Assembly (NCBI GenBank): GCA_013203315.1
Contig: JABMQJ010000026.1
Coordinates: 32,001-96,000, forward strand
Direction: 5' to 3'
Length of the DNA stretch: 64,000 bases
Origin: Candidatus Omnitrophota bacterium
GTDB lineage: Bacteria; Omnitrophota; Gorgyraeia; JABMRN01; RBG-13-46-9
Position numbers and translations under genes: made by a program. A model generated the notes under the pieces. That model did no database searches and had not been told where the DNA came from. It was given only the letters and a program-made list of their open reading frames with translations. Below, piece after piece: positions 17,215 through 52,700 of the stretch (positions are counted from its first letter, which is position 1; each line of letters starts with the position of its first letter).

Positions 17215-17215
17215 T

Positions 17216-27976: not shown

Positions 27977-28567
27977 ATGAAACATTTCACGGACGAGCAA
28001 TTGATAAAGAAAGCGAAGCGTAAAGATAAGAGCGCTTTTAGCGAGGTCATTGATAGGTATAGCGATAAGATGCTCGGGTATCTCTATCGATACGTGGGTG
28101 ACTATCAGAAAGCCGAAGACCTGACGGTTGAAACATTTTTCAACGCGTATAAAAGGCTGAAAACCTACACGGAAATGGGCAAATTCAGTTCGTGGCTTTA
28201 CATGATAGCGACAAACTGTGCACGGAAAGAGTTACAAAAAAGGGCCCGCTCCAAGGAGGTTTCGCTTGAAAAGCCTTTGGGCGTAGGGGCGAAGGAAGAT
28301 ATAAACTTAGGCGACTTGATAGCCGATGAAAAAACACGTCCCGATTACAACGCCAGGCAAACCGAACTTAAAGAGCTGATTTACAGCGCGATATCAAAGC
28401 TGGATAAAAAGTATAAAGACGTTTTGCTATTTTGCGATGTCGAAGGTTTATCTTATGAAGAGGCAGCCAAGATTTTGAAGTGCAATCCGATAACAATCGG
28501 CACCAGAGTAAGAAGGGCACGAATCATGCTATACAATACACTGCGAAGATATGGTTATGAATTCTAA
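27977..28567 (+). CDS. ECF (sigma70 group 4) sigma factor
   Basis: DEQLI, AEDLTVETF, FSSWLYMIATN, EGLSYEEAA, GTRVRRAR. GGAGG lies 8 nt upstream of ATG 27977. Confidence 0.93.
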   Translation: MKHFTDEQLIKKAKRKDKSAFSEVIDRYSDKMLGYLYRYVGDYQKAEDLTVETFFNAYKRLKTYTEMGKFSSWLYMIATNCARKELQKRARSKEVSLEKPLGVGAKEDINLGDLIADEKTRPDYNARQTELKELIYSAISKLDKKYKDVLLFCDVEGLSYEEAAKILKCNPITIGTRVRRARIMLYNTLRRYGYEF

Positions 28568-28691: not shown

Positions 28692-28780
28692 ATCTACGTG
28701 TTTTGAGTTTCGTATCTACGTCTTTTTTTATGTCCTGAAACTTAGGACATTTAAAAAGGGATAAATAAGGAGATCTACGT
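28692..28780 (+). promoter_or_regulatory. Structured leader of giant gene: 3x ATCTACGT, hairpin, SD
   Basis: ATCTACGT at 28692, 28714 and 28773. Hairpin atgtcct/aggacat at 28730-28750. AAGGAG at 28767-28772. Confidence 0.55.
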
Positions 28781-31700
28781 GATGAATGCTTGGCGTCCTT
28801 GGCAGTCTTGGCGAGTTTGGCAAGAACGCAAACTAAATAAACGCGAAAGTAATTATAATAATATAGATGCTAATGGTCTATCCGGAGGCGGTGTGTCTTC
28901 GGACGATTCTATGGAAGGCATGGCAGTTTGGACAAAACGCCATGCCCTTTTAATTAAAACTTTAGCATGGGTTTTAGTTTTTGCTTTTATAGTTTATGAC
29001 ATAACATGGGCGCAGGGCGGCGAGCCGCTTAGCCTTGGCGCTAAGGCGAGCGCCGTAAAAGTAAACGGCAGAGTTCACGAAGAAGGCATCAGGATACCGC
29101 GCGACGCCGGCTGGGCTCACGAATCGCATATCAACGGCAGCGACGAATTTATATTTAACATACAAGACCCGCACGCAAGCCTCGATGCACAGCACTCAAT
29201 CGTAAGAATCCTCGAGTCACTAAGCTCAAACTACGACCTGAACCTAATCGCGTTAGAAGGCGCCGAAGGCCCGATAGACATATCGTTTTTACGGACCTTC
29301 CCGGACGCTGAGATACGGAAGCACGCGGCCGAATATCTAATGCGCGAAGGCCGCATGTCAGCGGGTGAATTCTTCGCAATTGTATCCGAAAAACCGATAA
29401 AGCTCTACGGCATAGAAAATAGTCGCCTGTATCTCGAAAACGTGGAAGTATTTACGAAATTCATGGAATCGAGGCAAGGCTGCATAGACCACGTAAAAGG
29501 CGCTTTAAAAGCCCTAGAGAAATTCGCGCCAAAAGTTTACTCAAAAGACCTTCAAAAGTTATTGAAAGCGTCCAGGCTCCACGAGGAAGACAAGCTCGCA
29601 TTCGTTAAGTACTGGGAAGTTATTACGAAAATCGCAGAAGAACGCAATGTTGAACTTGGGGATTTTGCGGGCCTTCCGCAACTACTGGCAGCAATTGAAA
29701 TCGAGAAGGAAATCGATACAAAAGAGCTCAACAAGGAAAGAAAGCAGCTTCTTGACGAGCTTACAAATACGCTCACAAAGCCAGAGCTCGAAGACCTCGT
29801 AAAAACATCTCTCGATTACAAAACCGGCAAAGTATCCCAAAGCCAGTTTCACAAGTACGTGATGCGCCTTGCGCTGGATAAAGGCCTTTTCCTTCAGCAA
29901 TACTCCAACCTGGCAACGTTTAGCCGATACATCGCCGCTTACGAAGACATAAACTTCATGCAGCTTTTCCTCGAGATAGAGCAAGTTGAAGCCCGTCTCA
30001 GGGAGATCTTATTCCTGAGCGATGAAGAAAGGGAGCTCTATAACTTCACAAAAGCAGTCCGCACCACAAAAAAGCTATTCGATATCGCAGTAGGCAATAG
30101 CGACTACGAATTTATCCTGGAAAGCAAGAAATACTTCAATACAGATAACCTGCGCGAATTTATTAACAAAACCTACAAAAAATATGCCCTGATCAATGAA
30201 GATGAGTATGACGTAAATCGCGTATTCGAAAAACTAAGTGATGGCACCGAGCTTTATAACGTAGCCCAAAAGCGTAATAATGCCATGATTTCAAACACCC
30301 TAAGAGCCATGAGGATTAACAAGGAATACGCTGCCGCTCTCATAACCGGTGGTTTCCACTCAAAAGGCTTAGCAGAACTCATAAGAAAAAAAGAGCTTTC
30401 ATACCTGATTGTAATGCCGAAATACGAAGGCGAAAACAAAAGGCCGTATATAGCCGTTCTTACACAGAAACGCCAACCTTACGAGGAACTTCTTGAAACC
30501 GGCGAATACATGCTAGCAGTAAGGGCTTTCTGTTGGGACAGCGATCCGCGGAACATGGCAAGGGTCATAATGCCGATCGCAATATTGGCAGAACGCGGGC
30601 CTCTATCATTTGAAGATCTTGTTACGCAACACTATGAACAATTTTTACCTGTTTTTGAATACTATCAGAAGGCAAGAGAACAGTGGGGTGGCGATGGCTT
30701 GAGAACGCCGGTTGCGGAAAAAGACTTCTGCGCTATATACGGAGCAGAGGCGGATGCAAGCGGTAAACCGATTAGGGGCGAAGATGGCAAAATTCAGATA
30801 AAAACAAAACCGGTTGTAGTTAGAACATCGGTAGCGAACACACCAGTTTTTGTCGTGCGCCTCAAAATAAACGGTGAGAGTTTTGTTGGCTGCTTCGCTG
30901 AAAAAGACGGAAATTTTGAGTACCTCAGCCTGGATAGCTCAATGGCTAAAAAAGCAATAAGGAGCGCGACACGAAAAACCAGGAGATTAGCTTCGGAAAG
31001 AAAAGAAATTACCGCCGCAGTAGCGCGAGACGTTTCAATTGACGGGGCTGAAGGCATATTAGAAGGGCTAGGATCGCTATATATAGAGGAAAGCGCACTT
31101 AATACAGACCAAATAGCAGAGCGTGATAAGGCGCTTGAACTTATTGGAGCAGCAGCCAGTCGGCTTAATGGCCAAGAGGTAACCGTTAATAGGGCTGTTC
31201 GAGCCTTTGCAGGCGCAGCAGGTGCAGCAGGATATAGGATAGACCGAAAGAAGATCGGAGAAGACCTTCAGAATGTTATTGCAGCAGAAATAAAAAAGAA
31301 ATTAACACCGGAAGCTGCAGTCATACCGGATTTAGATAACAGGCTTAGCGAAAAGATAGAAAGATCCTTAAAGGAGCACCCCGAACAGAGAAATCCGGAA
31401 TCCCTAGCAAGTTTAAAACAAAAGCTGCTGGAATTATACAAAAAGATTTCGTCTTCTAAAGATATATTAGGTAACCCGGAGAAACAGGAGAAACTAGCGG
31501 CATTAATTGAATATACATTTGACAAGCTTTTAGATCAAGACGTAGATGATCTGAAGCTCCCGTATACTCCTCACGGCGCAAAACACTCGCTTGACGTTGC
31601 TAATTATATGGAAAGCCTGGTAGAAAATACCCCCGGTCTTAAAGAAAGGCTGGAAGATCTCTACGGCGAGAATTATAAAGAAATAGTTTTTTTGCTTGGA

Positions 31701-34700
31701 CTTCTTCATGACATAGGATATGCCGGATTGGAAGGCGCTAAGAAACAATTTGGAAAAGATAAAGTCGAAAAAGGTTATCATGCTGACTTAGGTGCGGCTA
31801 TGGCAAGGGATGACTTATCCGCTATTTTGCGGGAACTTTTTGGCATGGAAAGAGATGGGTCTCGGGAAGACAAAAGCGCGTTAGACGATTTCATAGATGC
31901 GATATTGCTGCACGGCGCGGATAAACGAAGTGTAGAAGAAGAAGGTCCTGAAGGTTCCGGCGAGCATAAGCATACACCGGCAAGCGAAACTAATAACCCT
32001 CTCCTCATGCTGGTGAGGTTAGCAGATAATCTGGATGTCTCCAGGGATAGGCTGAGAGGTTGGCAGAAGAATCCGTGGTTTATGAGAATACTTTATCACA
32101 TGGCGAACGATCAGGTTCTGCAGGATATTTCAGAAAGAAAGGACCTGACAAAAGACCAACGCGAAAACTTAATCAATGAAAGATTGAAATATCTAAGGGC
32201 AGAGGAGCTTAAAAAGCTGAAAAAAAGAAAAAAACTTGCCCAAAGAGTGCGGGAAAGTGGTGATACGGAAGCCATGGAAGAGTTCTGTAATGAGTTTCAG
32301 ATTGATCCGCAGACAGATCAAGAAATGATAATGCAATTATTGGAACAACTAACTAAGCCAGGCTCTGAACAGGAGTTTAAGAGAATTGAAGAAATGATTG
32401 GCAAAATGGATAACGAGGCATTCAAGCACTTTATAGGTGCCTTGGCTATCAGGGAACTTATATTGAGCGTAGATGAAGAAGGAAATTTAGCGATAAAAGC
32501 CATCGTTACGGACAGGGCAGACAATCCTATTTGGAGGGAGGCTGCCGAATTCCAGATAAATGGTAAAGGAAGAACCAATAATGCGCTAGAGTCACTTAGT
32601 ATAAACGGAAGAACTGTGAGAGTCCAAATCAGCTATGGAAAAAAGCAGTTGGAACTACCAATGCCAGGTGATCTCGGGAAACCAGTTGGTGCATTGGCCT
32701 CAGTTGCTGCATTGGCCATTGATGTAATGGAAGCGCAGAGCGTACTAGCTGTGCCGGGAGCCGAAGTGCATGTAGAAGACGTTACCCTGCCTGCAGCCAC
32801 GTCTGTAGTAGACGTTACCCCGCCTGCAGCTACGTCTGTTGTAGATACAACCCAAATCCAGCCTCAAATCGAGCTGGATGAAGCCAAGAAAGTATCTCCG
32901 TATTTAGCAAGAGTACTCCCCACATTAAGCCCAGAAATATTGAGCCAAAAAACCGGTATAAAAGCCGAGGTAGTAGACCTTGCCGGCACGCTACTTGGCA
33001 TAAGAGATTATCTTTTAATGAAAGAAGAAGGCAAAGAATTAGTCATGGCATGGATCCTGGAAGATAACGAGAGAAAACAGAAGATGATGGAAAAAGCCGG
33101 AGAAGATTATAAAGGAGACGGTTATGATTTAGTCTTGCAGGTAGCTGAAAAGCGTTTTGTAGATGGTAAGAGAGAAAAAGAAAGCGACAGGGCTGCTGCC
33201 AGACGCGTTGCATTAGGAATGGTGGCGCAGATTATAGCATACTACGGGAAGGAAAATATCGCTGCCCCCGGTGTCGAAAAAATAACAGCCAAAGCGCTGC
33301 AGGGTAAAATAAATAATGCCTTTACAAGGAGAGATAGGGCCAGACGCGAACAGCTTCTTGTAGAACACGGCATAGACATAGCGGAAAGTAATGCCCAGCT
33401 ATTAGTAACCACAAATACAATCGACTTGGAAGGAAGAATAGGCATATTAGGAAGGTTCGGCGTTACGGTTACCGCAGATCTTCTTTTATGCAGCGAAAAG
33501 TTATTGGAAACCAATATACCTATTATAATTGGGCATGACATAAAACCGGAAGATATAACCGCAGATCACGTTCATAACTTTCAAGATACGTTAAGAACAG
33601 AGCGCGAGGAAGATGTAAGACACATAGCGAGCTTAGGTGCTGACGAAGAAAATGCAGGGGCGCAAGCAACCGCGCGGCACGAGGCCGTTCAAGCAAAAAT
33701 AGACCGAGTGGATCGTGAGCGTGAGGCACTTGTGAGGAACTTAATATCTGCGCGTCAAAAAAAGCACAATACGCGCATGAAGGCAGAAGGCCAGAACCCG
33801 ATCGAAGGTACATACGAGGATATTGCGTTTCGCAGGGACGCGCTAGGAAAAGAAATTTTCGGCAAACTTTCCTCGCTTAAAGAGGAACTTGCACAGAATA
33901 TTCCGGAGGACGATGCAATAACAGCAATAAAGCAAGAACTGGAAGAGCTCAAAACAAGGGTAATAGAACTTGATAAGAGAAGAAGAGAAAGAAAAGGTAT
34001 TTCGAGAATACTTAATCTCGTAACCCGAATGATAATAGGAAGGCGTGTCCGTAGGATAGCTCGGCTGGAATTTGAACTAAACGAACGAATTCCGCAAGCC
34101 GCGCTCATGATTCAAAAGATAGATCTTTATGAAGCAGGATTGCTTCAGGCCGAGCCGCAGGATATAGGCATGTTGCGAAATGAAATCGAGAATGCCCTTT
34201 CTCGAAATGACGCCAAAGACTTCAAAAAGCTAGTAAGAGAATATCTGACAAAAACAAGGGTATTAAACGATATAGATAACGAGCTAGACAAATTTGAATC
34301 GGATCGAGAAAATCAGGTTGCCCACGAGGAACGATTCTACATGTATTGCCCGCAGTCTGTAAGGGACTATATAGAGGTAAGGCGCTCTGAGATAGCCGAG
34401 CTTAAGGCCAAGATAGATGCGCTTGACGCAAAAATAGAATCCGGAAGAACCGTGAAAGGATTCAGGAGAATCCTTAGAGGTCGTCGCTTTGGAATTTTGA
34501 CTTTGTTAACACGTGTTAGAAAATTATTTCATAAATTGCAGCTCAACAGATTAGAGGCACAGTCAACCCCGGAAGCGATTATTGCCAGGCTTTCCGAGGC
34601 TGCAAGGAGACACCTTGCATTCCAAACCAATGAATGGTCCAGATTCAACGGATTTTTAGGAGGTCTTGCGGATATTAACACGCTTGTCAAGGGAGGTATT

Positions 34701-37700
34701 CCGGTGATAGCAGACATGGCAGTTCGTCTTGTTTCAAGGGAGCGGCAAAAACCCCTTACACCGGAGGAAAGAAAAGAACTTGAAGACAAAATAGATGAAA
34801 GAGTAAGAGAACAATTAGGCATTGAAATCACCGATGACGAAATAAAAATAGATGGGAATGGCAAAATACAAAGCGAAATTGCATTATTTTTCGGAAGAAA
34901 CCTGAATTTAAAACCCGGCGCACAGCAGCCATCATTCCTGAGAGACTTCGTTTTTCTTACCGCTGTTAAATCCGGAAAATTCAGAATAAAAGATAAAGAT
35001 GGAAATGTCAAAGAAGTGAATCTTAGTAAAAGGTATGAAGCGCTTACCGGTGAAGAAAAACAAGCATTCGATAGCGAACTTGCCGAGATATGCCGCGGCG
35101 CAGAAGATGACCTGGTAAAATTAGCCATACACGATTTTCTTATACCATGGGCCGGAGAACGGCAACCCAATATAGTAGCTACGCTCTCTGCAAAAAGTGA
35201 AGAACTAATGAAGAGCCTCGAGGCGCGCAATGAAGCCATAATCGATCTTTTCGAAAAGAATTTGTTAGTTACAGATAAGGAAATGATAATACAAATGGAA
35301 GCGCCGAGCATACCCTGGAGAGATCTCGGCAGGGTAGCTGCTACCATTGCCGGTATTTCCCTTGTTGGGGGCATCATTGCAGCGACCGGGGGATGTGGTG
35401 CATCGCCAGTACTCAACCAGCCTGCCGTTGAACAAGCAGCGCAGCAAGCTGCGCAGCAAGTTGCAGAAGTACCGCAAGAACCAGCCTTGCCGCCGGCAGA
35501 GCCAACAAAAGCAACCGTACCTACCCCTGCGAAACAACCGGAAAAGCGTGTTACAAAACCTAAAGCAAAGACACCCAAAGCCGAAGTAGCAGAGGAACCC
35601 GAGGTAGAGAAACCCAAGGTATCGGAAGGATTAGATGCATTAGATGTATTATTGCCACAGGTACCGGGAGAAGGCGAATGGCTAGATAAATTAGTGCCAG
35701 AGGTAGAACCGGGAGCAGCGATACCTAGAGCAAGAGTGCCAGAGATGGTAGAGCTGTCCGTGCGAGACTTCCATGAGAGCCTGTATGGTTTCCCACGGGA
35801 TCAAGCCGACGGACTTAAAGACACTCATTTAACACGCGATGATTTGAAGAATATCTTTTCAAGGCTTAGCGGAAGTGTCGGACATAATCAGTCGTGGGAA
35901 GGTGCGCTTAGTCAAACAACAATACATATGAACGGAGTTTTAAGATGGCTTCGTGATAACAACATAAAACCTGAACAAATTCCTATGCTCTGGAGCCGCA
36001 TTCCGCGCACAATGCTTACAGGCGACCAAGCGCATACGATAGACCAATTAAGCCCCGGATTTTTGGAAGTATTGGGCCTTGCAATGAGCTTTTACGCAAA
36101 CGATATTGCAAGCCCCGCAAATATTGAGGAACGCGGAGGAAGAGCGCTTTTGGCGCAAAAAAGAAGCGAAATATTACGCGACCTGAAAAATTATATAGCA
36201 GGCGGAAACATTATTGCGAAGCCGGGTTCGCGTGCCGCACGCTTTGAAAATATCCCCGAATCACGCCGAAGGCTTGAACTTGGGTGGAATAAATTTGTGA
36301 CTAATAGCCTTGGATCGATAGATGCCGCAACTATGACTCTTTCCGATTCAAAGGACTTAAGAAGTGAACAGGAAAAGTTATCCCCGGCGCTTGATATTAT
36401 ACTTGGACGACCGGTGAACCTTAGGAGTAAAGTTGATAGAAACCTACTGCAGACCCTCGCTTCCTTTGCAAAACTTAACGGAATTAAAGCAGAGGACATG
36501 ACCTTGCTTATAAAAGCCGGTATGCCATTAGGACAGCTTGTACCACTATTTCATAGTTCGGCTACAATATCAGAACAACAAAGAATCCAAGCCAATATGA
36601 CCCAAGAAGAGATCAGCAGAACACATGCCCGCCATAATGCAATAGCGCTTAGCCGAGCTCGCCAAAAACATATAGCAAGGCTAGATAAGGCCAACCAAAG
36701 ATTCCAGAGAAGAATGAGTACTCTTGAATCTCAAGGTCTTACAGGCCCACGAACAGAATACGTGCAGAGACAATTAGCAGACTTACAAAGCCAAATAGAT
36801 GCTCAGCAAACTCTCTTAGGTTATTGGATAGAAGCAGATAATTCCAAGTATTACTTCGAGAGGGAAATAAAAGAGAGTACAACATCACCTGGGGACATCA
36901 GGCAAGAAATCGATGGAACCATAGCCGCAAGCAACAGCATAATATTGTTAAACGAACATTTAAATAATTTCCTTAGCATAATAAAGGCGACGTTCGAGAA
37001 TCTCCGTCCGGGCGAGAGCTTGAGCGATATACTTGCCGAGGGAGATACGGCGCAACTCGCTAGGCTCGGACGTGAAGCTTATGCGGTAAGAGCAAATTTT
37101 GCAACTATGTACGAGGTCATTTCAAGAGTCGCTGACCAATACGAGAACCCGCTAGCAAGCGCACTTTACTTTGCCTCCCAGAACGGGAAGGCTTTTCCGG
37201 GCACATATGTTGATGAAAATGGTGCTAGAAAAAAACTGGCTTATTTTGTGGAAAAAGACGGCCAGCGCCCGATCATAAAAGTTATTTATGACAATGAGCC
37301 GGAACCGCGCAGGACCTATGTAGACTGCGAATTTGATGAAAGAGAATGGCGAAATATAGAGGCGTCGGTAAAAGGTGAACGTGACCCCAACCCTACCAGG
37401 GATATTAACGATCCAACCAAGCCCGGTAAGCTTCTTGAAAAATTAGGTCCCGCTATGGAAATAGAAGAAGGCATAGAGGGAATTCCCGAACCCGTAATCG
37501 GCTTACCCGGGGGTATAGGCGACTTGGGCGTGACTGGTGAAGATCTCTTACAGCCCGCGACACAACCCAAAGTGCAAACCGAAGCTGAAAAAGCGGAAGA
37601 AGCCCGTCTGGAAAAGGTGAAGGGAGAGATTGCAACTAACTTTGACCTAGCAAATAAGGCACTGGATGGGGCAACTGAGGCCCTTAACGCGGATAACCTC

Positions 37701-40700
37701 GAAAAAGCGGACGACGAAATAGAAAAAGCAAAGGCTTTATACGATAGACTTGTAAGATATTCCTTCCGGAATGAGCCGGTAAAGCCCGGGGACCTTAAGG
37801 CGCTAAAAAACAGGATATCCGAAGCCGAGACTCAGCGGAAGGAAAGCCGGATATATAAGAGAGTACAAAAGCTTGAAAAAAGGTTATCTAGAATCTCAAT
37901 AACCATAGAAAACATACGTAGAAACGCGAATAAATTTGAAAATGAAACGGACTATAAACGCGCGAAAGATATAATTGACGGCATATTCGCTTCTTTAAAG
38001 AAAGAATTTTCCACCGGGGAATTGGAGTATAAAAAACAAGAAATAGATGCCTTAAAAGTGGAGTCCCGGCTCGCCGATAGTTTTGCCAGGGCATTTTTAT
38101 TATTCAAGAAAGCAAAACAGGATCAAGCAAAATTCGATGCCCAAAGGGAAGAAGCAAAGCGTAAGTACGAGGCGATAAAGGAAAAAATAACCAACGCCCC
38201 GCGACTTCAGGGACTTCCCCTTGCCCGGGGAATGGTGCACGTATTTCTGCATGGCAACGGCAGCCCCAGCCTCGCGCGATTTTTTAACAGAAACAAACCG
38301 AGGCACGGAAGATTTGACGAAGGCGATGTTATTGTAAGTGATACACCGGTACCCGATCATCTTAAGGGTAAGAATGTGGAATGGTATCGTTATAAAATAA
38401 GTTTCCTCAGGAAAGAAAAAATTCCCCTTAAGTCCGGCGATCCCAAAGCGACCCATGTTTCGGTAGACGGAAAAGAGTACTCGGTATATGGCCCTGTTTA
38501 CATGGTATTGGAAAAGATAGAAAAAGGCAAAAAAACTATAAGGGTAGCGAACGATACAATTGATTTGATGAAGCTTGTAGGCACAGGGTATACACTTAAT
38601 GATGAAAATGGAAATCCGCTGTTCTCAGAAGCCGTAGTAAAACTCGCCAAGGACAACGACTACGATGCGGCTGCGATACAATGGAATATAGATTTATCGA
38701 GACAGAGACACGAAGGCATACGCCAGGCGAAAGAGAACTCAGAGGAGCATGTGGTAAGACTGATACTCGATTCCTGGCAGGCCCATGCGGAAAATCTTGA
38801 GATTGAAGAAGCGTGGGCGGAAATGCTTCGCACAATGTCCGAGGGCACAAAGGTTGAACTGGGCATATCAATAGGGGCCTATACAAAGTCGCTTCCATTT
38901 GTGTCGGTGTGGGCCGGTATTACCAGGATCATAGATAAAAGAAGAGATGCTTATGTCAGCCAGGGTTTCTGGAAATATTATGTTAAGATTCAAGAGGTTA
39001 AGAATAGACAGGTTAAGCGGGTAAGCAGGGCCCTCGCGGACCTGACTGAACTGGGAGAAGTAAGGGCCGAATTGACACGCCTCAAAGGCGATGAAACGAA
39101 TTATAAAAATCTCCTGAAGAAAGAAAGGGACAAAAAATCTCAAAGGGCAATAAGGGCCAGGCTGGCTTCTATCGGCGCAGAAATAGCAGGGCTCCAGGCC
39201 CGCGACAGCGAGTTAAGCGAAGGCGTTCTTACTGAAATGGGCGAAAAGCTTAAGATAGATGAGATAGTAATCGATCCTAATAGACGTCTGAGGAAATGGC
39301 AGATTAACCGGATTCTTGCTCAATATGGGGTAGACGCGGGCACGGTTTATCCTGTTATGCGCGCATACTATCTCAAAAAATGGGCTGAGGCCAAACAAAA
39401 AGAAGCAGAAGCAGGAAAAACACCTGTATATACCTCTAAATCCATCGTAAGCGGTTCTGCCAGCGCCGCCGGTTTTTATGGCGGCATATTCGCGAGCATG
39501 GATGCCAAATTCGTAGATAAGGAACTGACCCCGGCAGTGGCTGATGTAATAAAACTACGGCAGGATGTAAATGCCAATTGGACGGCATACAATTCGCAGC
39601 AGAAAAAGAAAAAACTCGAAGTCATTTCTAAGGCGATAGACGAAGTTATAGATGCCTCGAATAGGAAAATCAAGAATCTGGCAGAGCGCAAAGCCGATGC
39701 GGAGAAGAAATACAAAAAAGGACTTTTAACCTTTGGACAATACGACGAGGCGCTTATAAAACTGAGGGAAGCAGAAAAGGAACACTCCGCTATAGTAACG
39801 CAGGGAAGCGCAATACAATACGATTTATGGATGCTTCATGACGGCCTTGACAGACAGCTGGGAGACGCCGTTAAGCTCAAGAGAGAAAAAGGCGCAATAA
39901 CCGCAAGTAAGTTCATGGAAGATGTGCTCAAAACATCCCGCGAGATTGGCGCCGGCAAAATGGCAGATGTAGATGTGCTGGAACATACCCGGCGCTTGAA
40001 GGAAGGGAAGGATAAAGGCGTAGTTACAATTGAAGGCGTTGGTGGCTTTGTAAGCACCGGCTCGGACGGAAAAGGTATTTCCTTGGGCGCGGGGGCATCA
40101 ACAACCCTTAAAATCGATACCTCGCGGGAACAGAAATTAGATATATTGGCAGATACCCTTCTTATATCTGAATTAAGAAAAGAAGCAACGGAAGAAGACG
40201 CGGCCATTAATGCCTTAAACGCACTCATTAGTTATAGGGGTATAAAGAAACAGACAGAATACGCGACCGCAGGGAAGAAGCATTACGAGGACTATAAAAA
40301 AGGCGCCGGCACACGAGAAGAAAAAGCCGAAGCCGAAGGATATCTGGCTGACGCGGTTCTTAATTTGAGAGGAGCCGAGCGATGGCTGACATCCGCAATG
40401 AGAGAGGCAATCACGTTAAGAGGCGGAGATTTTGCGAATGTTACGGATATAGATGACCCCACTGTATTATCCGGTATTATAGCCGAACTAAAGGTGAATC
40501 GTTATAAAAGAGAACTTGAGATATTAGACCTGCAGAAGAAAATTATAGAGGCCATGGCCACAATAATAGCCAAAGGAGATTCGTTCTCCCTGGCTTTAGG
40601 CCTTGCCTACGCGGTTCAATCAGATGGTGGTTCCACGCTGCAGACGATCGGATTTAACATACAAATGGAATCGAATATATTCGGTCCGTTCTTACCCCTT

Positions 40701-43700
40701 ATTATCGGTAACCCGGAAAAAATAGATTTAGAACTAGCGGAAAAACTCTACCAGGAAAAGCGAGCCAAAATACAGGCCGAAGCTAAGGCGAGCGATGAAA
40801 AAATTGACAGCCTGGAAGTCCGGGTAACCATAGCTAGGCAAGCTGTCGATAGTGCTAAAAAGGCTCTTACAGAAGAAAAAGAGGCGAAGAAAAAAGCCCT
40901 TAGGCTAGCCGAACTCGAAAAAGCGAAAAGTAACTTACAAAGCGCGCAAACTGATCTCGAACTGGAAGAACTCCAAGCGCAGGCATATAAAGGTGTCCAG
41001 CGTGTGCCGAGAGAGGAAGGGATTTCAGTAAAAGAGGCGGAAAAATTAAGGCTAAGGTTGGCAGAAGCAAAGCGAAAGGCGGATGTCATAGATGAAGAAA
41101 CTGGAAGGGTGGAGCCACAAGAGGCAAGGGAAAGAGAAGCTAGGGTCAGCGGTGCTGTTAATTTTAGAATTGTCCTCCTCGACCCAAGGAAGCCGGATAC
41201 GTCTGAATATGATATCGAAGCCCTTAGAGAAGAATCCAGAGAAAAAGTCGAAGAAGGATTAAAAAATTATAAAACTCTTAAAGTTCAAGCCGCACGATAT
41301 GGTGTAGAGCTGGCGTGGCTGAATTATCTTAGGGCAATAGCGGTAAAACAGTTAAATCAATTCAAAGGCGACCTTCCGGCGTTAAAGCCGTTTGACAATG
41401 AAGAGACCAGTAGAATGAGGAGATTTACAAAATTTGTATCGGAATTAGATGCCAAAATTGCTAATATTGACGGAAAATTGGAAGAAACGGAAAAACAGAT
41501 TCCCTACGCGGGCGATGCGATTGGCGTGGTATACGTGGGCGACAAGATTGCCATAATAGTAGAAACCAAGCCCAACGGGAAAGAAGCAATAAGAGAGCTG
41601 AAGAAAATAAGTGAAAAAGATCGCGCCGCCGTATTGAAAGAGATAGAAGACCGGGACCCTGAACTGAGGCGGTTGAAAGCCCTTCGCGCACAAGCCCAAA
41701 AAATGCACGAGGCCACAGAGCCCCAACTGGGTTTTCTACCCGTTATTGATTTAAAGGGCATGTCTGGCATACCTATAACAGGCGCCCAGCTTGACCTTAC
41801 ATGGACTCTTTTCGATTCCGGGCTTAACGAGGCCAATAGGTTACTGGCGTGGATAAAATTAGTAAGGCAGGACCTATTAATTAAAGTGGAAGAAAACAAA
41901 AAGTACAACAGTCTTATTTTAGCCCTGGATCAACTTGAGAAGAAGACTTTGCGTTTAAAGAAGGCTGCAACGGCTAGAATGCGCTATCTCGGTTACATGG
42001 ATGAGAACGGTAAGTTCGTTCCGGGTTTATTGACAGATGTCATAGAATCGTTGGACAATCAGAATACGAATTTGGATGAAGTTAGAAGAATTTTCCGAGA
42101 GTCGCAGGACGCGGTAAGCGAAAATGCCGAAGCCGCTTTTGAAAGTTTAGCCGCCGTAGAAAATTTTATCGTTTCTTTAGAAGTAATAGGTGTTGATCCC
42201 GCAAAATATCTTAAAAAGCCAAAAAAATTATCAAAACCGGCCATAGAACCTGCGCAGCCGACGACTACTAGGCCGAGCGTTGCGCCGGCGGTGAGTGAAT
42301 ACAAAGTTCCCACCCAAAAGGTGCAAGATAAGGACATAAAAGACGAGATAGGGATTCTTATAGAGGCATCCGGCATGAGTGAACGAGCGGCCGTATTTGC
42401 GGTAATATCTGCTAAACGATTTGTCGAGATGAACCGTAATATAGTTAACGTGCAGGGCCGTGAGCCATGGACGTCTAAATTACACTTTATAGGGATGTCA
42501 GAATACGCCAGAAAAATAGCACGGAAAATGGCAGAAGATCCGGGCTTCAAAATTCCTGATCACCTCGGCTTCAGAAGCATCTATGATTTATCTACTACAA
42601 TGGAGGAATCGGGACAAGTTAACGACCCAAAGACAGGCATTTATCCGGGCCTGTTCAACCTGCTTGGCCTGGCACATTATATGCAATGCTACGAAGATAG
42701 ATTTGGTAAAGAGAAAGCCACGGCCCATTTTAATGAGGTTATAGCTAAAATTAAAGGTCCAAGGGATGAAGGATGGGAGATAGGGATACAGAAAAGATTA
42801 GCGGAACTTGGCCTTGGAAAAACAGAAGAGGAGATGCATGCAGGCAGGGTTGCCCTTTCCGGTATAGCCGGTAGAGCTGTCGGCAGAGACCTTAACGTTC
42901 ACACGAACCTTCATGACATGGGTATTGCGGGCAGGTTCTACAATTTCGGCCTTTTGCAACACTTAAATCCGGGGCAACTTGATGCTATGGTAGATGTTAT
43001 GCGGGAACTACGGTCGTTCCTTAACAGTATATTCGATAATTATGGGGACATGACGAATGACGAATTATCAAAACAGCAGGGTTCCTACAGGCTGAGATTG
43101 AACAGTGAAAGATTGAAGACGCTTACTCCCGGAACGCCGGAATATAAACATGTTGAGATGCTCGTAGAAAGGGCAAGAAATGCGCTCATAGAAGAATTAG
43201 AACTCGACCGTCTCTTCAGCGCCGCCAGGGCAATATTAGAGCAGAGCGGCAAGGTGCTGAAGAATATGTCGAAGAAGGACATACAGGCAATTCTCAAGAC
43301 CACGATTAGAAGCAAGGCGTGGCGTGACTCCCTGCAAGATAATATAATTCCACGAATGAAAGGTGAAGACGGCAAGTTCCTAAGCGATTACGAAAATCCT
43401 TTATTTGACGCACTTAACTTTTCCGATAGTCGCGGAAAAGCCTACCCGGGCAAGGACGCAAAAGGAAAACGCGTAACTTATTTTGTGGAAAGGATGAAAA
43501 TCGATGGAAAAGGAAAATTACAGCCGGTTGTAAAAATTATCTACGCTGGCGAGCAAGAACCGCACAAAATCTATATAGGCCACTTTGACAAAGAAGCATG
43601 GTTAAAGGGAGACGCGTTGCCTATTCTGGACTTGGAAGGGAACAAGCCAACAAAGCCCGTCATAGAATTAGGTCCCGCTATAGAAGTAGAAAAAGGCATA

Positions 43701-46700
43701 GAGGCGGTTCCCGAACCCGAACCCGGAATCGGCCCACGCGGGGCGATAGGTCTCTTGGGCGAGGCTGACGAAGTCGAGAAAAAGTTGCTAAGTGAAACCG
43801 GAAGACGCGAGTATGTGCCGTTGTCCGCAGCCGGAATGAAGGGTCTCCTGGCGGTATACCAGCGTGACGAAAAAACGGGCGTACGCGGTATGCGGATAGG
43901 AACCGTAAAAAATCTAAAGCTAAATGAAAAAGGAGAAGTCATAGGTGGGGATATTGTTGAGAAGAAATCGCTAAGTGAAACCGGAATACGCGAGTATGTG
44001 CCCCTGTCCATAGAAGGTATGGAGGGCTTCCTGGCAGTATACCAACATGACAAAGAAACGGGTGTACGCGGCGAACGAATAGGAACTGTAAAAAATCCAA
44101 AGATAAATGAAAAAGGAGAAGTCATAGGCGGAGATATTGTTGATAGAAGAAGAACCGCTACAATTGGCTCACGCGAATACGTAATTGCAAGAGTTGAAGA
44201 TGGAAATGATATACCGGAAAGCCTAGCATACCTTCCTGGAGACATGAAGGATGTAGTGCTTGTGTATTCCGGATATGACGAAAACCAGCCGATAGGATAC
44301 GCTGAAAGCGGTAAGATCAGCTTCAACGAAGACGGAACAGCCACGTTAAGCGATGATGTCATAATTATGAGGACAGCCCGGGTGCCGTTTACAGGTGAAC
44401 TTGGGGCAGTAGGCCACCTTTATGCAAATGGAGAATATTACAATCTTCGTAAGGGCGAAGTTCATGGTTTTGACGGAAAATATACTGCGAAATTATACAA
44501 AATCAAAGAATTCGAAAAAGAACGTGTAGAAATAAGATTTACAAGTACCTCGAAACATCCACGTCATGATTCGGCCAGAGAATCTATCGTATTGGTCCAG
44601 GACATGGAAACAGGCCTACCTATCCGTGAAGAAAATGTGCCACTGGTGATACGCGATGGAAAACAAGCTTATGTTGTTTACGGGACAATACACTTTTTCA
44701 ATTGCAATGAAGAAGGAAGGCCGCAGTACGTGGAACTACGATTATCAGACGGCAAATTCCATGATGGCGTGTCAACGCGCAAGGCTAAAACAATACGATC
44801 AATGGAATGCGAATACAGAGAAGACGGAACGCGTGTCAATACCCGATGGACATACGGAAAAGGAAAAGAGTGGTGGAAGAACAAAATCTTCCAGCGTGGA
44901 GTAGAAGCCGTTGTGGCCCCGGCAACTCGCATGAAAGGCGTATCGGTTGTCACGCTTGCTCAAGTAAGGTGGAAAAATGCATGGTGGAAAACCCAGGCAA
45001 GTTTTGGAAGTGGGATAATAAAGTTAACAGAGCCATTATCCCAAACCGACAGAGGGTGGGAGGCATGGCAGTCAGAGTTTGACGTTGAAATGCAGGATGC
45101 CGGACATTCCACCGCACCGATGGGAAGTGCTCAACAAGCTGCCCCCCATGACGATAATTGGAAAGATATGACTAAATTACCGCCGCAACCCCGCACCGCA
45201 ATAACTCCGAATAGTATTGCAGGAGAGGTCTACGAGATAAATAAGGTGATCGAAAAGCACCATCCCAATCTCATGAAAAGGCTTAATCAACATTTGTCGC
45301 AAGAAAATTGGAACGAATTCTGGGCTGATATATGCGAGATACACCGATTAAACGTATGGCCTGCCAGGGTCCACCTTGAAGGCGTTGCGCACTATCTCGA
45401 TCTTCTTTTAACTGAAATCGAAGAAGAAGGAGGAGACGTAACTCTTCTTTTCAGTGACCTCGAATTGGCAACGATTACATTTAAGGATAGAAAGCTTCGG
45501 GGAGTACTTGCAGCAGGAACAAGAGGAACTGACCCAGCGTTAGGCGAGGGATTGGATATTTTGATAAATGTTTTAAAAATTGCAGATAACCTAAAAAGCC
45601 GCGAAGATTCAATACTTTATATGAGTGAGTGGGAGATGAAGGCGCTTGGCGCCGAAACCAAAGAAGGAATAGTCACAGCAAGGCTTCGCATTTTCCTAAA
45701 ATTTCTTACAGACTATAAAAACGGAAAAATGACCAAGAGAGATTTTGAATACGAACTAAAAATCGTGAACAACACAATTCACGAGTACGCAGTCCGGCAT
45801 AATAGAGATGAACAACGCCAGGGAATAAGAGCTATCAAACCACTGCTGAAAAAACTTTATCCGGGACAGGAAAGATTGGATGAAGAGATCAACGTGTATG
45901 AAGCATCCGCGAATATGCTCTACTGGTTTATGGTAATGCTGGACCTCTCGCCGAAAAAAGTCGAACAACTTATGCCGCTACTTTCCAAGTTAAAAGCACG
46001 CCTCAATGAGTCATTGTTGGAATATGATGAATCTTTTGTGGAAATATTATTATACATAGCGTCTTTCAGGATATCCGGACCGAAGACTTACGAAGCTGAC
46101 CGCCTCTTCCGGGCCAAGTTACAAGCACGCCTCAATGAGTCATTGTTGAAATATGATGAATCTTATATGCCAACATTATTAAACATAGCGTCTTTCAGGA
46201 TATCCGGACGCCACACAACTAATAGAGGTATCGCGAGGGCTTACGAAATTGACCGCCTCTTCTGGGCGTTGATAGCACTGGTAGAGAATACCACTGACAC
46301 GGAAATCGCAGACCTTACCACGGAAGAAATCGAAGATATGATGAATAAAACAATCAACAATGATAGATGGATAGAATACTTTAATATGGCAATCGATGTT
46401 CAGATAAAAAATGACACGATGCCCGATGTGTTTAAGTCAGCTTATTATGCAAGTGCGTCTCAGAGGCCACCCGCAAAGATAGCACGAATAAGAGAAGATG
46501 TACCTACAAAAAGTGACACACACTATCTGAGCATAACCTATATACCAGGCTCTGAAATAAAAGAATCCAACGTAAAAGCCTATACCGTATCCGAAGATGC
46601 AGATGGGAAGCAGGAGATGATGAAGTTTATTATAAAGAAGGATGCAGAGGGCCACCCGATAGTAGAGCTTTTTAAGGGTGGCGAAAGCGATCCCAGCCAG

Positions 46701-49700
46701 GTTTGGGAAGGCGTATTCGATGTGAATGAATGGCTTGTAGGATCTGAGCTGGAAGAATGCATTACAATAGACGGGAAACCCGGCAAGCTTTTAGAGACAT
46801 TAGAAGAGGCAGAGGTCATCGAAGAACTAGGAGAAGAGGGTGTGCCGGCGCTTCCCGCTCCAGAAGTTCCTGGACCCGCAGTCGGCGAACGCGGGCCAAT
46901 AGGTGCCTTGGGCGCAACTAAACCGGCAGAAAAAGTATTGGCAACAACGCCGGATGGAACAAAAAAGTTCGTCCAGCGTCCGGATGGCAGTGTATGGCTA
47001 GTGGCGAAAGGAGACCCGAATCATCTTGAGATGTCTAGAGGAAAGACGCAAGCATGGGCGGACAGGAAAAATGCGCCACCCGAACCTCGCAGTGATATAA
47101 ACCCGGAAACGATAAGCGAGGAAGTAAGCGGAAAAACGGAATCTATCGCTGCAACGCTTGAAAAATATTACCCGGAAGAAATGAAAGCGCTTTCCGAAGT
47201 TATTACGCCGAAACAGTGGAACGAAATGTGGGCAGAAGTTTGCGAAGTTCATAGGCTAACCCCTAGAGGGGCCAAGGAGCATTTAGAGCGCGTAAATTAT
47301 TGGTTGAATGAAATTCTTAAATGGGAAGAAAATAATGGTGTAAAAATTGACATTCCGGAGGATATGTACTCGCTTCTTTACGCCATTCGGCCGCTAAAAA
47401 ATGAGGTATGGCCCATAGAGAAGGCGCTTCCCGGGTTACTGCGAAAATTGACCTATGTCGATTTTATGGCATCATTGGAAAAGCATAGGTTGTTATTTGA
47501 TGCCCCGGTTCTGAAGCTAGCCGACGCAACAGTCAGGAAAGATCTTCGGGAGGTTTTCGTTCGTTTCTTCAAGATACTAAAGGACCATCAGAAAGGGAAG
47601 CATGACAAGAGTGCCATTTTAAGATTTAGAAGGGAAATAGATGATAGAAACGCAGTGATTGTTGATCTCGCATTACGGCATAATACCGGGGAGCAGCTAA
47701 CTGGTGAGACCGCTGCGCTTGAAAAAATCTCAAAACTTTTCCCGGAGTGGAAACTAAAGTATGGAGTGAGCCAGAAGGGTTTTCACGACTCTCATATATT
47801 GTTTTCATTTTACATGTTTATGGTAACCCAGGACCTTTCATCCGGTAAGATCGATGAGCTTATGCCTTTATTGCAGGCGCTGAAACCTTTTCTTAATGAT
47901 TCCTTCGGCGAATACAAAGACATGGAATTAGGTAAGTTGCTAAAAACGCCGCGTGGCTTCGATCTTGACGGGGTTATACAAGTGTGGAAAACTCTGGGTG
48001 AGGACTTAAAGAAGCTTTGGGGCGGCGAGGTGCATAAGCAAATGCTTAGAGGCCTTGAACTTGACCGTCTCTTTGAGGCAGCACGGCTAATAGTAGAATA
48101 TCACAGCGGGGGAAAAAGGATAAAGGATTTATCAGGAAAAGAGATACAAGAGATTCTAAAACAGACGCTCGGGAAGAAAGGCTACACGGGATTTCTTGCC
48201 AGGGTAATTAATATTCAAAAGAAGAACGGCCTTACCCCGGACATGCATAAATCAATTGATTGCGCGAATACACGCAAGACACCGCCACAAGCCGAAACGG
48301 TGACAAGAAAAGACCTCCCCGGAAAACTACCGGGAGGAAAATATTACCTGAGCACGACCTACGAAAGCGGCTACAGGACCCCGGAGGAATATACCTTATA
48401 TAAAGATGCGGAAGGAGAGACAAAGATAATAACATTTTCTCTAAGAAAAGACGGAACTGTTAGGATAATATACGGCAATGATGAGGCGGCTTCGCAAGTT
48501 TGGAAGGGCAAATTTAATAAGAATGCGTGGTTACAAGGAAAGGCTTTAAAAGATTGCATTACAATAGACGGCGAAAAAGGCCAGCTTTTAGAGGAATTAG
48601 GTAAGCCAGAAGATGTGGAAAAAGGTATAAAACTAGAAGAGCCTGCGGTGCCCACGCCCACGCCTGCGCCCGGAATAAGTGAACAGGTACTTGGACGTGC
48701 AACTCAAGGCGCAAAGAGCGCAGTTGCAGGCACCGGTTCACCTTTGACGAATTTTGTGATGATCGTAGGTATGAGTGCGATAGGCGTTGTAACCGACTCT
48801 CAACAAGCACAAGAGCCCCCAGCGCAAGTGGCGCAAGTGGCACCGGCGAAGTCGGCGCAACCGGCGAAAAAGGCGGCGACGCCGCCGGCGCAAGCGAAAA
48901 AGCCGACAACGCAGAAGGCACAAACACAACCCGCAGCGAAACTGAAACCTGCTGAAAAAGCTAATCTACTCATGAACTACAGTGGGCCAGATGGAAAAGA
49001 TTCATACGGCCGTAATGCCGGAGAAAATTTCTGGGGACATGTTGGCATAAGCGATCCTATACAGGCAGAAAAAACAAGAAAAGCTTTTCGACACATGAAA
49101 AAGCTGGGCATCGACTCCGTGAGAATGGGATTAGTAGCCGATGGCCGCTCACTAATGGACGAAAATGGAAAGGTTGACCCCCAAAAACTTAATAAGTTCA
49201 TGGAGGACGTAGAGGCTTTACTTAAAATTGCAGAGGAACAAGAAATCCAAATAGAAATAGAATTTTCCCTTATCGACCATCTTATAGCGTATAAGGGCAG
49301 AATAGATAACGGCGTCCCAATTTTTGGTAGGGATGAAGTAATAAAAGACGCTGCAGGATTTGTTAAAGACTTCCTGACACCATTCCTTCAGAAATTCGGG
49401 AAACATAAGGCGATAAAAGGAATCGACATTATAAACGAACCGGAATGGATCTGGATTAATACCCCCGTTACAAAGGACAAGGTAAAACAATTTATAAGAA
49501 TATGTTCGAAAGCCATAAGGAAATGGGCTCCGGGTAAAACCATAACAGTCGGTGTTAATACCGAGTATACCGGAGAAATGGCCGCATTAGTTCGCGAAGG
49601 CGTGCTGGACTACGTAGCCATTCACCACTATGAGGATAGGTTCAGAAGGAAAAAAGCCGACGGCACATTCGAGAAAGATAATTTCGCGACATTAGAACGC

Positions 49701-52700
49701 TTCGTAAAGGCACTTAGCGTGCCTGAGGCACAAAGAGTGGCATGGGCAATCGAAGAATCCCAGATAAGAGAAGAAGATATCCCTCGGGTTCTGGAAATCA
49801 TTAATAAGTATAACGGAAAGATAATCGGAATTTGGGGATGGAATGATAGTGACAAGAGAAGCCTTAACCCGGCAACGCGCGGTCCCTTACTTAACAAACT
49901 GCAACAGCTTAGAAAAGAACTACCTGTGCCGCCTACTGTGACACCGCCCATGCATACCGTAGAAATGACGAAGGCGGTTAGCGAATTAGACCCCGGAAAA
50001 GCGCCGAACGAACCTGTTTCCCCTCTAACAGCACCCAAGATTGTGCGCCCGTCCAAAAAAGACATTAACCGGGTCCGCGTGCGCAAGAAAAAAGACGAAG
50101 ACGGAAAAATTAGCGAATCCTATAGATATGAAAAACGAACGAGAGATCACGAAGACCCCAGAAAGCGCAAACACAGCAAAATTCTTGATATCGGCGTTGG
50201 AGAAGTAGAAAGAACGGAAATTCCCAGAGCAGGCGTCGACCTTATTTATATAATACAGTTTGACCCTTTAACAACAGAAATAGTACGCATGGAGTTATGG
50301 CGCGGGAAGTTAAAGGTAGAAGACAAAGGGAAGGTAATAAGCTACTTACCTGAAGGAGACCTTGAGCCCATGCTCGTAGAGTACGCGGAATTCGAATACA
50401 ATCCTGACAAGACAGTAACGATGCGCCTCGCAAGGCGCGATGTTCTGGGAGGCGAAGAAAACTACATAGAGGAATACGTATTTAAAAAAGTAAAATTCGA
50501 GGATGGCAAAATAAACATAATGGTTTCGAAGACTGTCTATGACAAAAGCCTCGTAGAAAAAGCTACGGTAATTACGCAGATTGACAGGAATGAAAAAACC
50601 GGCGAAATAACAGAAAGGGAATGGATACAGTGGCAGGGCCAAGAACTGCAGAAGTCATCGATGACTGTCTACGCCTCTCACATAGATAAAACGGGCTTCT
50701 TGGTATGGGAAAGGCAAAGACGCAGAGACTTTGGCACCGGTGCGTGGTTAGAGACATTACGCAAAAAGGTTAAAGGGCAGAAAATAGAAATTGAGAAAGG
50801 TAAAAATAAAAAGGGCGCGTATTATGATGGCAAGGGAGGAAAAAGCCGCATTTACTATGCAGATGGCGGTAGGTGGGTTAGCATGGAAGACGGCGTTTCC
50901 GCTGCGGCCGAAATTAAGAAAGGCCAGAAGAGAGATAAGCCGTTCGACCCTATAAAAATCGGTTATACCGAAGCCATAGATATAGAAGGCAAAAAACATG
51001 TATTATATGAAGCCGACACCGAGATAGAGAACAACGCAAAGTTTGACCACAAAAATAATACACTTACATTACCTGAGGAGATTACCGTTGATGGCAAAGA
51101 CTTTAAAATCCCCGATGCCGCGCGAACTTACAAACTCCCTGCTAAACTACCTGGCGATAGGGCGATATATAAATTCCATGTAAAGAGGGAATACGACAGC
51201 GAGAAGAATAAAGTGTTAACTACCCAAGTAGAGTGGGTAGTAAGGGATGAGGCGGAAAAGCTGATCTACAAGGTTACAAAGAATTTGATAACGGGCGAGA
51301 CAGAAGTTTATGAACTTCATCCCGAGATGAAGATGGAAATAACCGAATTGGAACTTGAAGCAAAACCGGGCGAACATCATGACCAGACACATAAAGATGT
51401 TTCGGAAGGGACATTTTACGACGAAAAGGGTAGAGAAAAGGGAAAAGTATATCACAGAATGGTTTTTGACCCCAGGTACAGGGATAAAGACAAATGGCGT
51501 TTCCTGCAGGAAAGAGGAAAAATAGTCGAAGAGAAGGTGCGTGATGTCGAGAACAACAGGGAAATCACCGTGCTTTATAGCATAACAGAAACGATAGAGT
51601 TCAAAGAAGATGGTTCGCAGGTCGTGAGAAAGGTAAAAGTATCCGTAGATGAAAATTATAAACCCGATGGCAGGGTTCGAGAGGAGCTCATTGTAAAAAA
51701 GGATAAATATGGCAGGATCAAACAGGTTGATGGGGAACCGGATAAATTTGGCATACGCGACGGGCTTACTACTCAGGGTGTTAAGGATGTCGGAAAAAAG
51801 ACAGAATCCCGCTTTACCCCGCAAACGTATAAATTTGTGCCGGTTACGAAACCGGGGCAGGAGTTGCCGGGGTTAATTACGGATAATAAGGGTGTGCAAA
51901 AGGAATATGTGCTCGCGACTACAGGACGCGATTCTAAAGGTAAATTAGTTCTAAATTTCAAAAAAACCGATAAACGCTTCGGTTACACCCAAGTTGTGGT
52001 GCCCGAAGGCGCAAGATGGGTTACAGAGACTAAGGAAGATGTAATAAGGGATGAAAAAACAGGGAAAGAGATTACAAAGAAACAAGTGGTATTTGGCCTC
52101 TACGACGCCCATGGGAAACCTTTATATCAGGATATAGCTACTAAATACGGTGATAACGGAATAGTCCACCAGGTTTTGGTTTATAACCCCACTGATAGCA
52201 CGATGGCAGAATACGCCACCTACAGAAAAAATTGGCAGGATAAAGAAACACTCATGCTGAAAAAAGTTTCACAACTCCTGCGCTATCGCAACTCCGAACT
52301 GATCGATCAGTGGTTACTATTATACGAAGAATCATATCTAAAAGGATTTGTAAGGGAATACACATATGATATGCAAAGGGCCCTTAGCGGCGCTTTTGGC
52401 GGCATGCAACCCCTCACGAGTAAAAAATGGAAACTAAACAAAGACGGTTCGCGCGGCGAATTGACAGAGCACATGGCATTTCTTTACTATGGGCCGACAG
52501 GGCAGCGCCTGATTGTAGATATGCGTGACAGGAGAGACGACAACGGAAACCTCATAGATCACGAAACGCCGTTGGCAGCGGGTCAGGCAGTGACGGGCCT
52601 TGTTACCCCGTTTGCAATAGGGGAAGAATTCGAAACAGAAGAGTGGAATACAAAGATTGTAGAGCGTCCGGACGGAACGCTATGGATTGACACTTCACAA

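Follow-up and report, generated by a model that had tools for sequence, protein, structure and literature searches.

A probable covalently triplicated TolC homologue within a giant protein of Omnitrophota

We analysed a window of 64,000 nucleotides from the genome of a Candidatus Omnitrophota bacterium (assembly GCA_013203315.1, contig JABMQJ010000026.1, positions 32,001 to 96,000), in which one giant gene encodes a block of six repeats that resemble those of TolC and of the other outer membrane factors (OMFs). The host is a tiny freshwater bacterium with a genome of 1.5 Mb in 32 contigs, estimated to be 97% complete. Coordinates are positions in the window, the features described lie on the + strand, and block residues are counted from residue 3300 of the giant protein. 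The giant open reading frame (ORF; 28779..63998, continuing past the window end) starts with GTG and encodes 16,610 residues; in the genome it runs through 16,610 codons with no stop and no N and ends at position 110611 of the contig, called C25 here. The TolC/OMF-like block, which is also the stretch that we modelled, lies at 38676..42248 and corresponds to giant residues 3300-4490. An ordinary OMF is a protein of ~450 residues with two OEP repeats that works as a homotrimer. The preliminary description of this DNA had read the six repeats as the possible makings of such a trimer in a single chain, folded into a pseudo-trimeric barrel.

The block is made of three units of two repeats, each the equivalent of a protomer: unit A (repeats 1-2) at 38733..39872, block residues 20-399; unit B (repeats 3-4) at 39894..40997, residues 407-774; and unit C (repeats 5-6), the most diverged, at 41010..42209, residues 779-1178. 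In a model made with AlphaFold2 (AF2), each repeat runs through a preceding helix (14-25 residues), a β-hairpin, a long helix (49-62) and a return helix (33-41). The two strands of hairpin 1 lie at 38847-38882 and 38898-38933 (block 58-69 and 75-86), those of hairpin 2 at 39426-39464 and 39471-39509 (251-263 and 266-278), those of hairpin 3 at 40023-40064 and 40077-40118 (450-463 and 468-481), those of hairpin 4 at 40581-40625 and 40632-40670 (636-650 and 653-665), and those of hairpin 6 at 41742-41765 and 41781-41813 (1023-1030 and 1036-1046), whereas repeat 5 has one modelled strand at 41139-41180 (822-835). Modelled strands thus fall at each of the six positions where hairpins had been noticed from the sequence, and the earlier remark that only one strand is clear near 41140 agrees with the single strand of repeat 5. 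First strands start 558-603 nt apart, close to the 560-595 nt previously given, and the long helices noted between the hairpins are present in the model. The repeats number six, not fewer, and their recurrent helix-hairpin-long helix-return helix order is not that of a plain coiled coil, the alternative that the preliminary description had itself named.

The four motifs quoted from the sequence are all found in the translation: LPVIDL at 41736-41753, LTWTLFDSG at 41796-41822 (at the end of hairpin 6), KKYKKGLLTFGQY at 39705-39743 and YKKGAGTREEKAEAE at 40293-40337. The 11 modelled strands are amphipathic, with a mean difference between their two faces of 2.70 Kyte-Doolittle units, against 1.33 (standard deviation 0.99) for a null of 20,000 random 13-mers drawn from the same protein.

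Homology to OMFs was detected in both directions. The Pfam OEP profile matches the block with 30.9 bits (E 3e-7; the curated cut-off is 22), and the slightly larger region 38481-42500 with 29.9 bits in three matched stretches. Given single repeats, it matches repeat 3 (21.9 bits), repeat 2 (14.0) and repeat 4 (10.1), and does not match repeats 1, 5 and 6. Among 15 homologous blocks, seven match OEP at E <= 0.01, the best at 2.5e-13. The same genome encodes elsewhere five ordinary TolC-type OMFs with two OEP repeats, and profile-profile comparison with an alignment of these five is significant for repeat 6 (E 1.7e-6, probability 89.9), repeat 3 (1e-4) and repeat 4 (5.4e-3), and not for repeats 1, 2 and 5. 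Conversely, the profile of the 15 blocks picks out two ordinary proteins of ~500 residues with two OEP repeats in other genomes (E 7.1e-10 and 1.3e-6). The outcome of no OEP similarity, which would have spoken against the earlier proposal, did not occur. The ESM Atlas gave weak leads (score 0.92, recognition 1784), with one cluster annotated as a putative TolC family protein and one as TP096X_N.

The repeats are also related to one another. With repeat profiles built from the 15 homologues, repeats match in register (1 vs 3, E 3.7e-7; 1 vs 5, 3.1e-4; 3 vs 4, 2.9e-4), and all 15 pairs of repeats reach E <= 0.05; an earlier hhalign comparison based on a 6-sequence alignment, with per-repeat E-values of 0.002-0.24, was replaced by this version. 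BLAST of residues 3201-4700 against themselves gave zero internal matches, so the repeats must be very diverged. When the units are compared as single sequences, local similarity is found between A and B (z 3.7) and none involves unit C, from which we conclude that the triplication is ancient.

The predicted fold points to the same family. The AF2 model built on the 15 homologues has a mean predicted local distance difference test score (pLDDT) of 77.0 and a predicted template modelling score (pTM) of 0.74 over 1,191 residues, and shows the TolC order of elements six times. It replaced a model from 6 sequences with pLDDT 59.2 and pTM 0.46, in which the hairpins were below pLDDT 50; in the 15-sequence model, the 10-residue blocks over hairpins 1-3 and 6 average pLDDT 62-93. 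Among the Foldseek matches listed, all those at E <= 0.001 are OMF channels (36 for the better model and 41 for the first one). With VIA-align, the first 29 rows for the better model are all OMFs, after which the score falls to Z 9.0. Unit B (model residues 408-774) superposes on TolC 1-406 with Z 21.0 and a root-mean-square deviation (rmsd) of 4.6 Å over 345 residues (Z 21.7 in the first model), and 18 rows put a whole protomer on 407/408-773/774. Unit A (19/20-389/390) superposes on VceC, OprM, CusC, OprN and others in 11 rows, with Z 13.8-15.7 and rmsd 3.0-3.3 Å over 351-358 residues. Since whole protomers superpose on pairs of repeats, we divide the block into the protomer equivalents A, B and C. 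Taken with the profile matches, this makes it very probable that the block is an OMF homologue with an OMF fold.

Repeat 5 is the main structural uncertainty of the predicted model. Confidence drops below pLDDT 50 at block residues 778-826 and 947-979, which makes unit C the weakest part, and the homologues in genomes G003 and G004 have ~100-130 extra residues at repeat 5. A TolC-type unit needs two membrane crossings per repeat, and repeat 5 should therefore contain an irregular crossing segment or a seam; the missing strand might act as a lateral seam or gate. A different irregularity is seen in repeat 6, where two short strands and a 10-residue helix (41985-42056, block 1104-1127) stand between the long and the return helices. 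This tip element is partly missing in G003 and would sit at the periplasmic mouth of the tube.

Closure of the three units into one ring would require contact between A and C, which are not adjacent in the chain. Folded as separate chains, these two units score 0.65 (median of three runs) vs 0.33 for the best control; of 80 solved complexes, 58 reach the mark used in this docking, as do 2 of 110 mismatched pairs. Contacts agree between the runs to at least 82%, with partner pLDDT of at least 60. The interface pairs strand 57-69 with 1036-1050, and helices 33-55 and 154-194 with helix 1052-1104. A contact between first and last strands is the one by which protomers of TolC trimers touch, and the predicted pairing is the contact that would be needed to close a three-unit ring. 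The pTM of 0.74 over 1,191 residues indicates that the model is confident in the relative placement of the units. One VIA row, with CmeC, spans model residues 20-1070, a mere hint that in the single-chain model the helix of repeat 6 is a neighbour of unit A. We consider it likely that the block is an intrachain pseudo-trimer. The structural reading of the preliminary description is thus supported: units A and B superpose on protomers and contact between A and C is predicted. Closure is predicted rather than directly observed, and repeat 5 contributes a single modelled strand.

We then searched for the block in other Omnitrophota. Among 61 close relatives, including the genome itself, five match, and full-length blocks are found in G003 (in a frame of 9,518 residues, 32% identity) and G004 (34%). 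In the family of genome G102, matches were found in 18 of 54 genomes, mostly in frames of ~2,000-13,000 residues. In an even sample of the phylum (401 genomes), 16 match the 15-sequence profile at E <= 1e-5: 13 of these matches are in frames of at least 2,000 residues, two are ordinary OMFs and one lies on a short fragment. Full-length collinear homologues lie in frames of 8,000-13,000 residues. The collinearity of repeats 1-4 and 6 holds in the nine added homologues examined, six of which align poorly at repeat 5, and hairpin positions and alternating patterns are kept across the 15 homologues at 12-34% identity. This recurrence in giant ORFs indicates an old module that keeps returning in a subset of the giant proteins of Omnitrophota. 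Word-indexed searches of proteins of 5,500-17,500, 2,584-5,000 (with alignment A2) and 389-2,583 residues (with the 15-sequence alignment A3) gave no free-standing protein with six repeats, which is weak evidence given the word filter. A match in G052 was judged to be due to chance (39 residues, E 0.0046, in a frame of 122 residues). Genome G020 was left out of the alignments, as its matches, at contig ends, covered nothing but the flank that precedes repeat 1; G300, which fell short at E 1 in a previous comparison, was left out of A3 and yet matches it at 5e-114.

Some genomes show variants of this arrangement. Contig C68 of G329 carries two copies of the block (L032 and L029), one in a frame of 10,443 residues and the other cut by the contig end. 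Units of two OEP repeats also occur inside longer frames, at G020:C6:104940-106244 (2,237 residues), G126:C18:17784-19085 (1,569) and G102:C7:65343-66677 (1,090). Fusion of OMF units to other domains may be common in Omnitrophota.

The cell has the envelope that an outer-membrane channel would need. The window contains genes for a Kdo transferase, LpxK and three heptosyltransferases, upstream of the giant gene, and the genome encodes Omp85/BamA, as expected of a diderm. On the Kyte-Doolittle scale, strong hydrophobic segments are found at giant residues 57-75 and 2183-2201, and none within 2202-8604. The last one before the block (35325..35381, residues 2183-2201) resembles a membrane helix, has no Lys or Arg in its C-terminal flank and is followed by a Pro/Ala/Lys-rich linker. 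The first strong one after the block (54591..54647, residues 8605-8623) is followed by RRRLPPRFRP, with five Lys or Arg in 15 residues. With these flanking charges, the positive-inside rule would place the intervening 6,400 residues, block included, outside the cytoplasm, an assignment from sequence that is not firm. A cytoplasmic block was dropped on the same charges, though a literal count of the segments points there. The block has no signal peptide or lipobox of its own: it starts 3,299 residues into the ORF, 1,100 residues beyond the nearest hydrophobic segment. That segment is followed by ...ATGGCGAS, a weak lipobox-like motif (segment and motif lie within 35325-35420), and in a homologue from G102 (L045) an internal segment shows a clearer motif of this kind, ...FLLTGC. 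Such motifs would suggest internal signals of the lipoprotein type, provided that the giant protein is processed.

We propose that the six OEP-type repeats are three protomer equivalents in one chain, i.e., that the block would be a covalently triplicated TolC/OMF homologue. The three units would pack side by side into a single pseudo-threefold tube, a β-barrel of 11-12 strands atop a helical tunnel of ~85-95 Å, closed where the first strand pairs with the last. Divergence among the three units allows such a tube to be asymmetric, which is impossible for a homotrimer. The module would be extracytoplasmic and, assisted by BamA, would insert into the outer membrane of the cell itself, leaving the helical tube in the periplasm; the presence of BamA and of an outer membrane makes this the simplest reading. 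The block would then hold the giant protein, itself anchored in the inner membrane, to the outer membrane as well, and form a fixed duct across the periplasm and the outer membrane. The most likely function, as we infer it, is that of a built-in outer-membrane anchor or duct. As a whole, the reading of a fused triplicate OMF homologue that forms one tube in the cell's own outer membrane is the one that we favour on balance. A more far-reaching version, in which the giant protein is a one-polypeptide trans-envelope machine, held in the inner membrane by its helices, whose own asymmetric duct lets the following ~4,100 residues (with their repeated modules and a glycoside-hydrolase-like region), or products of the chain, reach the surface or a prey, is doubtful.

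Several observations weigh against the fused single tube in the outer membrane. A phmmer search of the block against 1.84 billion representatives gave no match at E <= 0.001, a sequence search of the PDB gave nothing relevant (one chance match of 12 bits), and NCBIfam gave nothing for the block or its flanks; the relationship to TolC must be remote, since these single-sequence searches are blank. Repeat 5 alone has no significant similarity to OEP (E 0.33 against a TolC profile and no match in Pfam), and unit C is the best superposition for none of the solved chains in VIA. The regular strands modelled are 11, and where strand 9 would stand, this genome has 23 charged residues modelled with low confidence. 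As regards closure of the ring, the docking of A and C may reflect the predictor's exposure to TolC trimers, which have been solved; docking of separate chains cannot tell packing within a chain from packing between chains; and the closed barrel is predicted rather than directly observed. As regards topology, two hydrophobic segments before the block and an N-terminus inside would leave the block in the cytoplasm by literal count, and the number of upstream segments varies from 2 to ~9 among the homologues. The picture is complicated by a weaker hydrophobic segment at 48735-48791 (residue 6653, score 1.55). It is followed by a Pro/Ala/Lys/Gln-rich linker that resembles the one after residue 2201, and may be a further membrane segment, which would alter the topology downstream of the block. 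Finally, no adaptor of the HlyD type and no transporter domain was detected beside the block, partners encoded elsewhere not having been searched.

These points bear differently on the alternatives to the fused single tube. The blank single-sequence searches are what one would expect if there were no real relationship to TolC and the match were a by-product of charged, coiled-coil-like helices, and the ESM Atlas recognition of 1784 is below the 2300 of most known families. Such a by-product would not explain why OEP matches above its curated cut-off, with E 2.5e-13 in a homologue, why the block profile finds ordinary OMFs in return, why whole protomers superpose with Z 14-21 where the helical background is at Z 9, or why the hairpins recur with the period of OMFs; we regard this alternative as hardly credible. 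It would be easier to imagine that the block derives from TolC and has lost its barrel, leaving an elongated helical stalk with decayed hairpins, either periplasmic or extracellular. One strand of repeat 5 is lost in this genome, the hairpins fell below pLDDT 50 in the model from the shallow alignment, hairpin 2 is weakly amphipathic (face difference of 0.21 for its first strand) and repeat 4 has large insertions in some homologues. Decay is at odds with the conservation of hairpin positions and alternation across 15 homologues of 12-34% identity, with the mean pLDDT of 62-93 that hairpins 1-3 and 6 reach with the deeper alignment, and with a mean strand amphipathicity well above the null, which together leave a barrel-less stalk improbable.

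Other alternatives accept the barrel and change its partners or its place. Every known OMF assembles between chains, and the TolC-like repeats might do so too, with units from other copies of the giant protein or by swapping domains, to form several barrels or a larger ring; the docking, made with separate chains, fits this equally well, and closure within one chain is a prediction. Assembly between molecules would leave unexplained that there are exactly three tandem protomer equivalents joined by short linkers, that homologues of several families preserve this number and order over repeats 1-4 and 6, that the single-chain model has a pTM of 0.74 over 1,191 residues and that the units have diverged from one another, as expected for fixed and non-equivalent places; we find it quite improbable. 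The barrel could also be a weapon, displayed at the surface and driven into a host's or prey's outer membrane or envelope as a pore or a docking duct for enzyme domains, a use that the preliminary description had offered besides a conduit for the giant protein itself. In known OMFs, the barrel enters the membrane from the periplasm through the BAM/TAM machinery of the producing cell, and both ends of a TolC-type unit are periplasmic, which would put the flanking 1,100 and 4,100 residues on the side of the tunnel mouth. No features specific to pore-forming toxins were found with Pfam and NCBIfam. What speaks for a weapon is that the 6,400-residue stretch containing the block has a weak match to the glycoside-hydrolase-like DUF4434 (21.4 bits for a cut-off of 30) and that the available text of two reports proposes roles for Omnitrophota giant proteins in attachment and in the digestion of prey cell walls (10.1101/2023.11.21.568195; PMC10066038). 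We give it a small chance, and retain the fused triplicate in the cell's own outer membrane as the working model.

The rest of the giant protein (28779-63998 in the window, then L042:3-14612) is a mosaic in which enzyme domains of a cytoplasmic type are interspersed with clusters of membrane segments. The former, as identified with Pfam, are an HD phosphohydrolase, a dCMP/cytidine deaminase, GDPD, a HAD hydrolase, an NTP transferase, a class II fructose-bisphosphate aldolase and a histidine-kinase-type ATPase (HATPase_c); the clusters of hydrophobic segments are at residues 8605-10961, 14293-14368 and 15512-15863. A module of ~110-140 residues recurs at 37140-37535, 43389-43760 and 46596-46919 (giant residues 2788-2919, 4871-4994 and 5940-6047), probably with a fourth copy near residue 6600. 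The copies have 34-43% identity, with E down to 3e-23, and each has a Pro/Gly-rich stretch at its end. Copies 1 and 2 flank the TolC-like block, and these modules may be borders of cassettes or sites of processing.

Directly upstream of the giant gene lies a gene for a sigma factor of the extracytoplasmic function type (Sigma70_r2 and r4_2; 27935-28567). Downstream, a second very long ORF (L043:1471-9909, i.e., C25 112070-120508) encodes at least 2,813 residues, with a GNAT acetyltransferase, an MbnB/TglH-like domain and an N-terminal domain of pyruvate phosphate dikinase, and is open at the contig end. As to the reliability of the sequence, contigs from two sequencing runs cover 37500-43500 with zero differences, but they are possibly the source of this DNA and hence not independent. 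An assembly artefact was dropped as an explanation, because the repeats are too dissimilar to be mis-joined and the stretch is spanned by contigs. A contig joint listed for the region was judged to be due to chance, as it consists of 21-26-letter matches of a different contig of 6,566 nt.

The comparison with TolC and other OMFs separates what is shared from what is new. TolC-family channels are textbook obligate homotrimers. The trimer forms a 12-strand barrel, is ~140 Å long and has an internal duplication within the protomer, according to the part of a published account available to us (PMC8277102). As in these channels, each repeat of the block is a short helix, a β-hairpin, a long helix and a return helix, and a unit of two repeats corresponds to a whole protomer; an FDSG-type motif stands at the end of hairpin 6, there are Y-x-x-G turns at two helix tips, and the predicted contact between units involves the first and last strands and neighbouring helices. 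Unlike in OMFs, the six repeats are in one chain instead of two repeats in each of three chains, and the three units have diverged beyond any similarity detectable by BLAST. The block is embedded in a protein of 16,610 residues instead of being free-standing with its own signal peptide or lipobox, repeat 5 has one modelled strand and repeat 6 an extra tip element (block 1106-1127). OMFs work with a periplasmic adaptor and an inner-membrane pump, whose genes are often neighbours; next to the block, neither adaptor nor pump genes were observed. As its protomer equivalents are linked covalently and differ from one another, we regard the block as a homologue with a new architecture rather than as an ordinary OMF. 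Searches of the literature for single-chain, fused or monomeric TolC-like proteins gave nothing relevant, and broader ones gave only papers on ordinary efflux, so three TolC subunits fused in one chain look like an arrangement not described before. If true, a natural chain with three protomers free to diverge shows that this fold can be built asymmetrically, and offers a ready single-gene scaffold for studying or engineering a TolC-type channel.

Two other systems combine very large proteins with outer-membrane barrels. In type V autotransporters, a 12-strand outer-membrane barrel and a large surface passenger belong to one polypeptide, and the trimeric ones build the barrel from three times four strands. 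The giant protein would be analogous in having barrel and large passenger in the same chain, but its barrel would be in the middle of the chain and carry a helical periplasmic tunnel of ~90 Å, and no autotransporter barrel family is among the Pfam or fold matches listed (Foldseek, VIA). In Pseudomonas fluorescens, the giant type-1-secreted adhesin LapA is held in the TolC-like LapE, as the accessible portion of a preprint describes (10.1101/198937). The parallel would be the physical link of a huge surface protein to an outer-membrane duct of the TolC family; in LapA's case the duct is a separate homotrimer that the adhesin threads, whereas here it would be in the protein's own chain and any threading is hypothetical.

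The closest context is that of the Omnitrophota giant proteins of the Archaeovorin and Dockerin types, with which this protein shares the phylum, the size class, the many membrane segments and a mosaic of few known domains. Structures described for such proteins, in what the preprint's consulted sections report, are β-helix tubules and CBM35/dockerin-like ladders, and a type II secretion locus lies upstream of other giant genes (10.1101/2023.11.21.568195). Unlike these, the present gene has no type II secretion locus in the 28 kb upstream, where lipopolysaccharide-core, DNA repair and housekeeping genes are found. TolC, OEP and outer-membrane efflux are unmentioned in the main texts of the Omnitrophota giant-gene preprints, of an Omnitrophota survey and of a huge-protein survey, while supplementary domain tables might list OEP. 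The fused triplicate would thus give a first concrete structural clue to how Omnitrophota proteins of 8,000-16,000 residues span a two-membrane envelope and, should the trans-envelope machine prove real, it would represent a cis-encoded route of secretion and retention that is distinct from types I and V.

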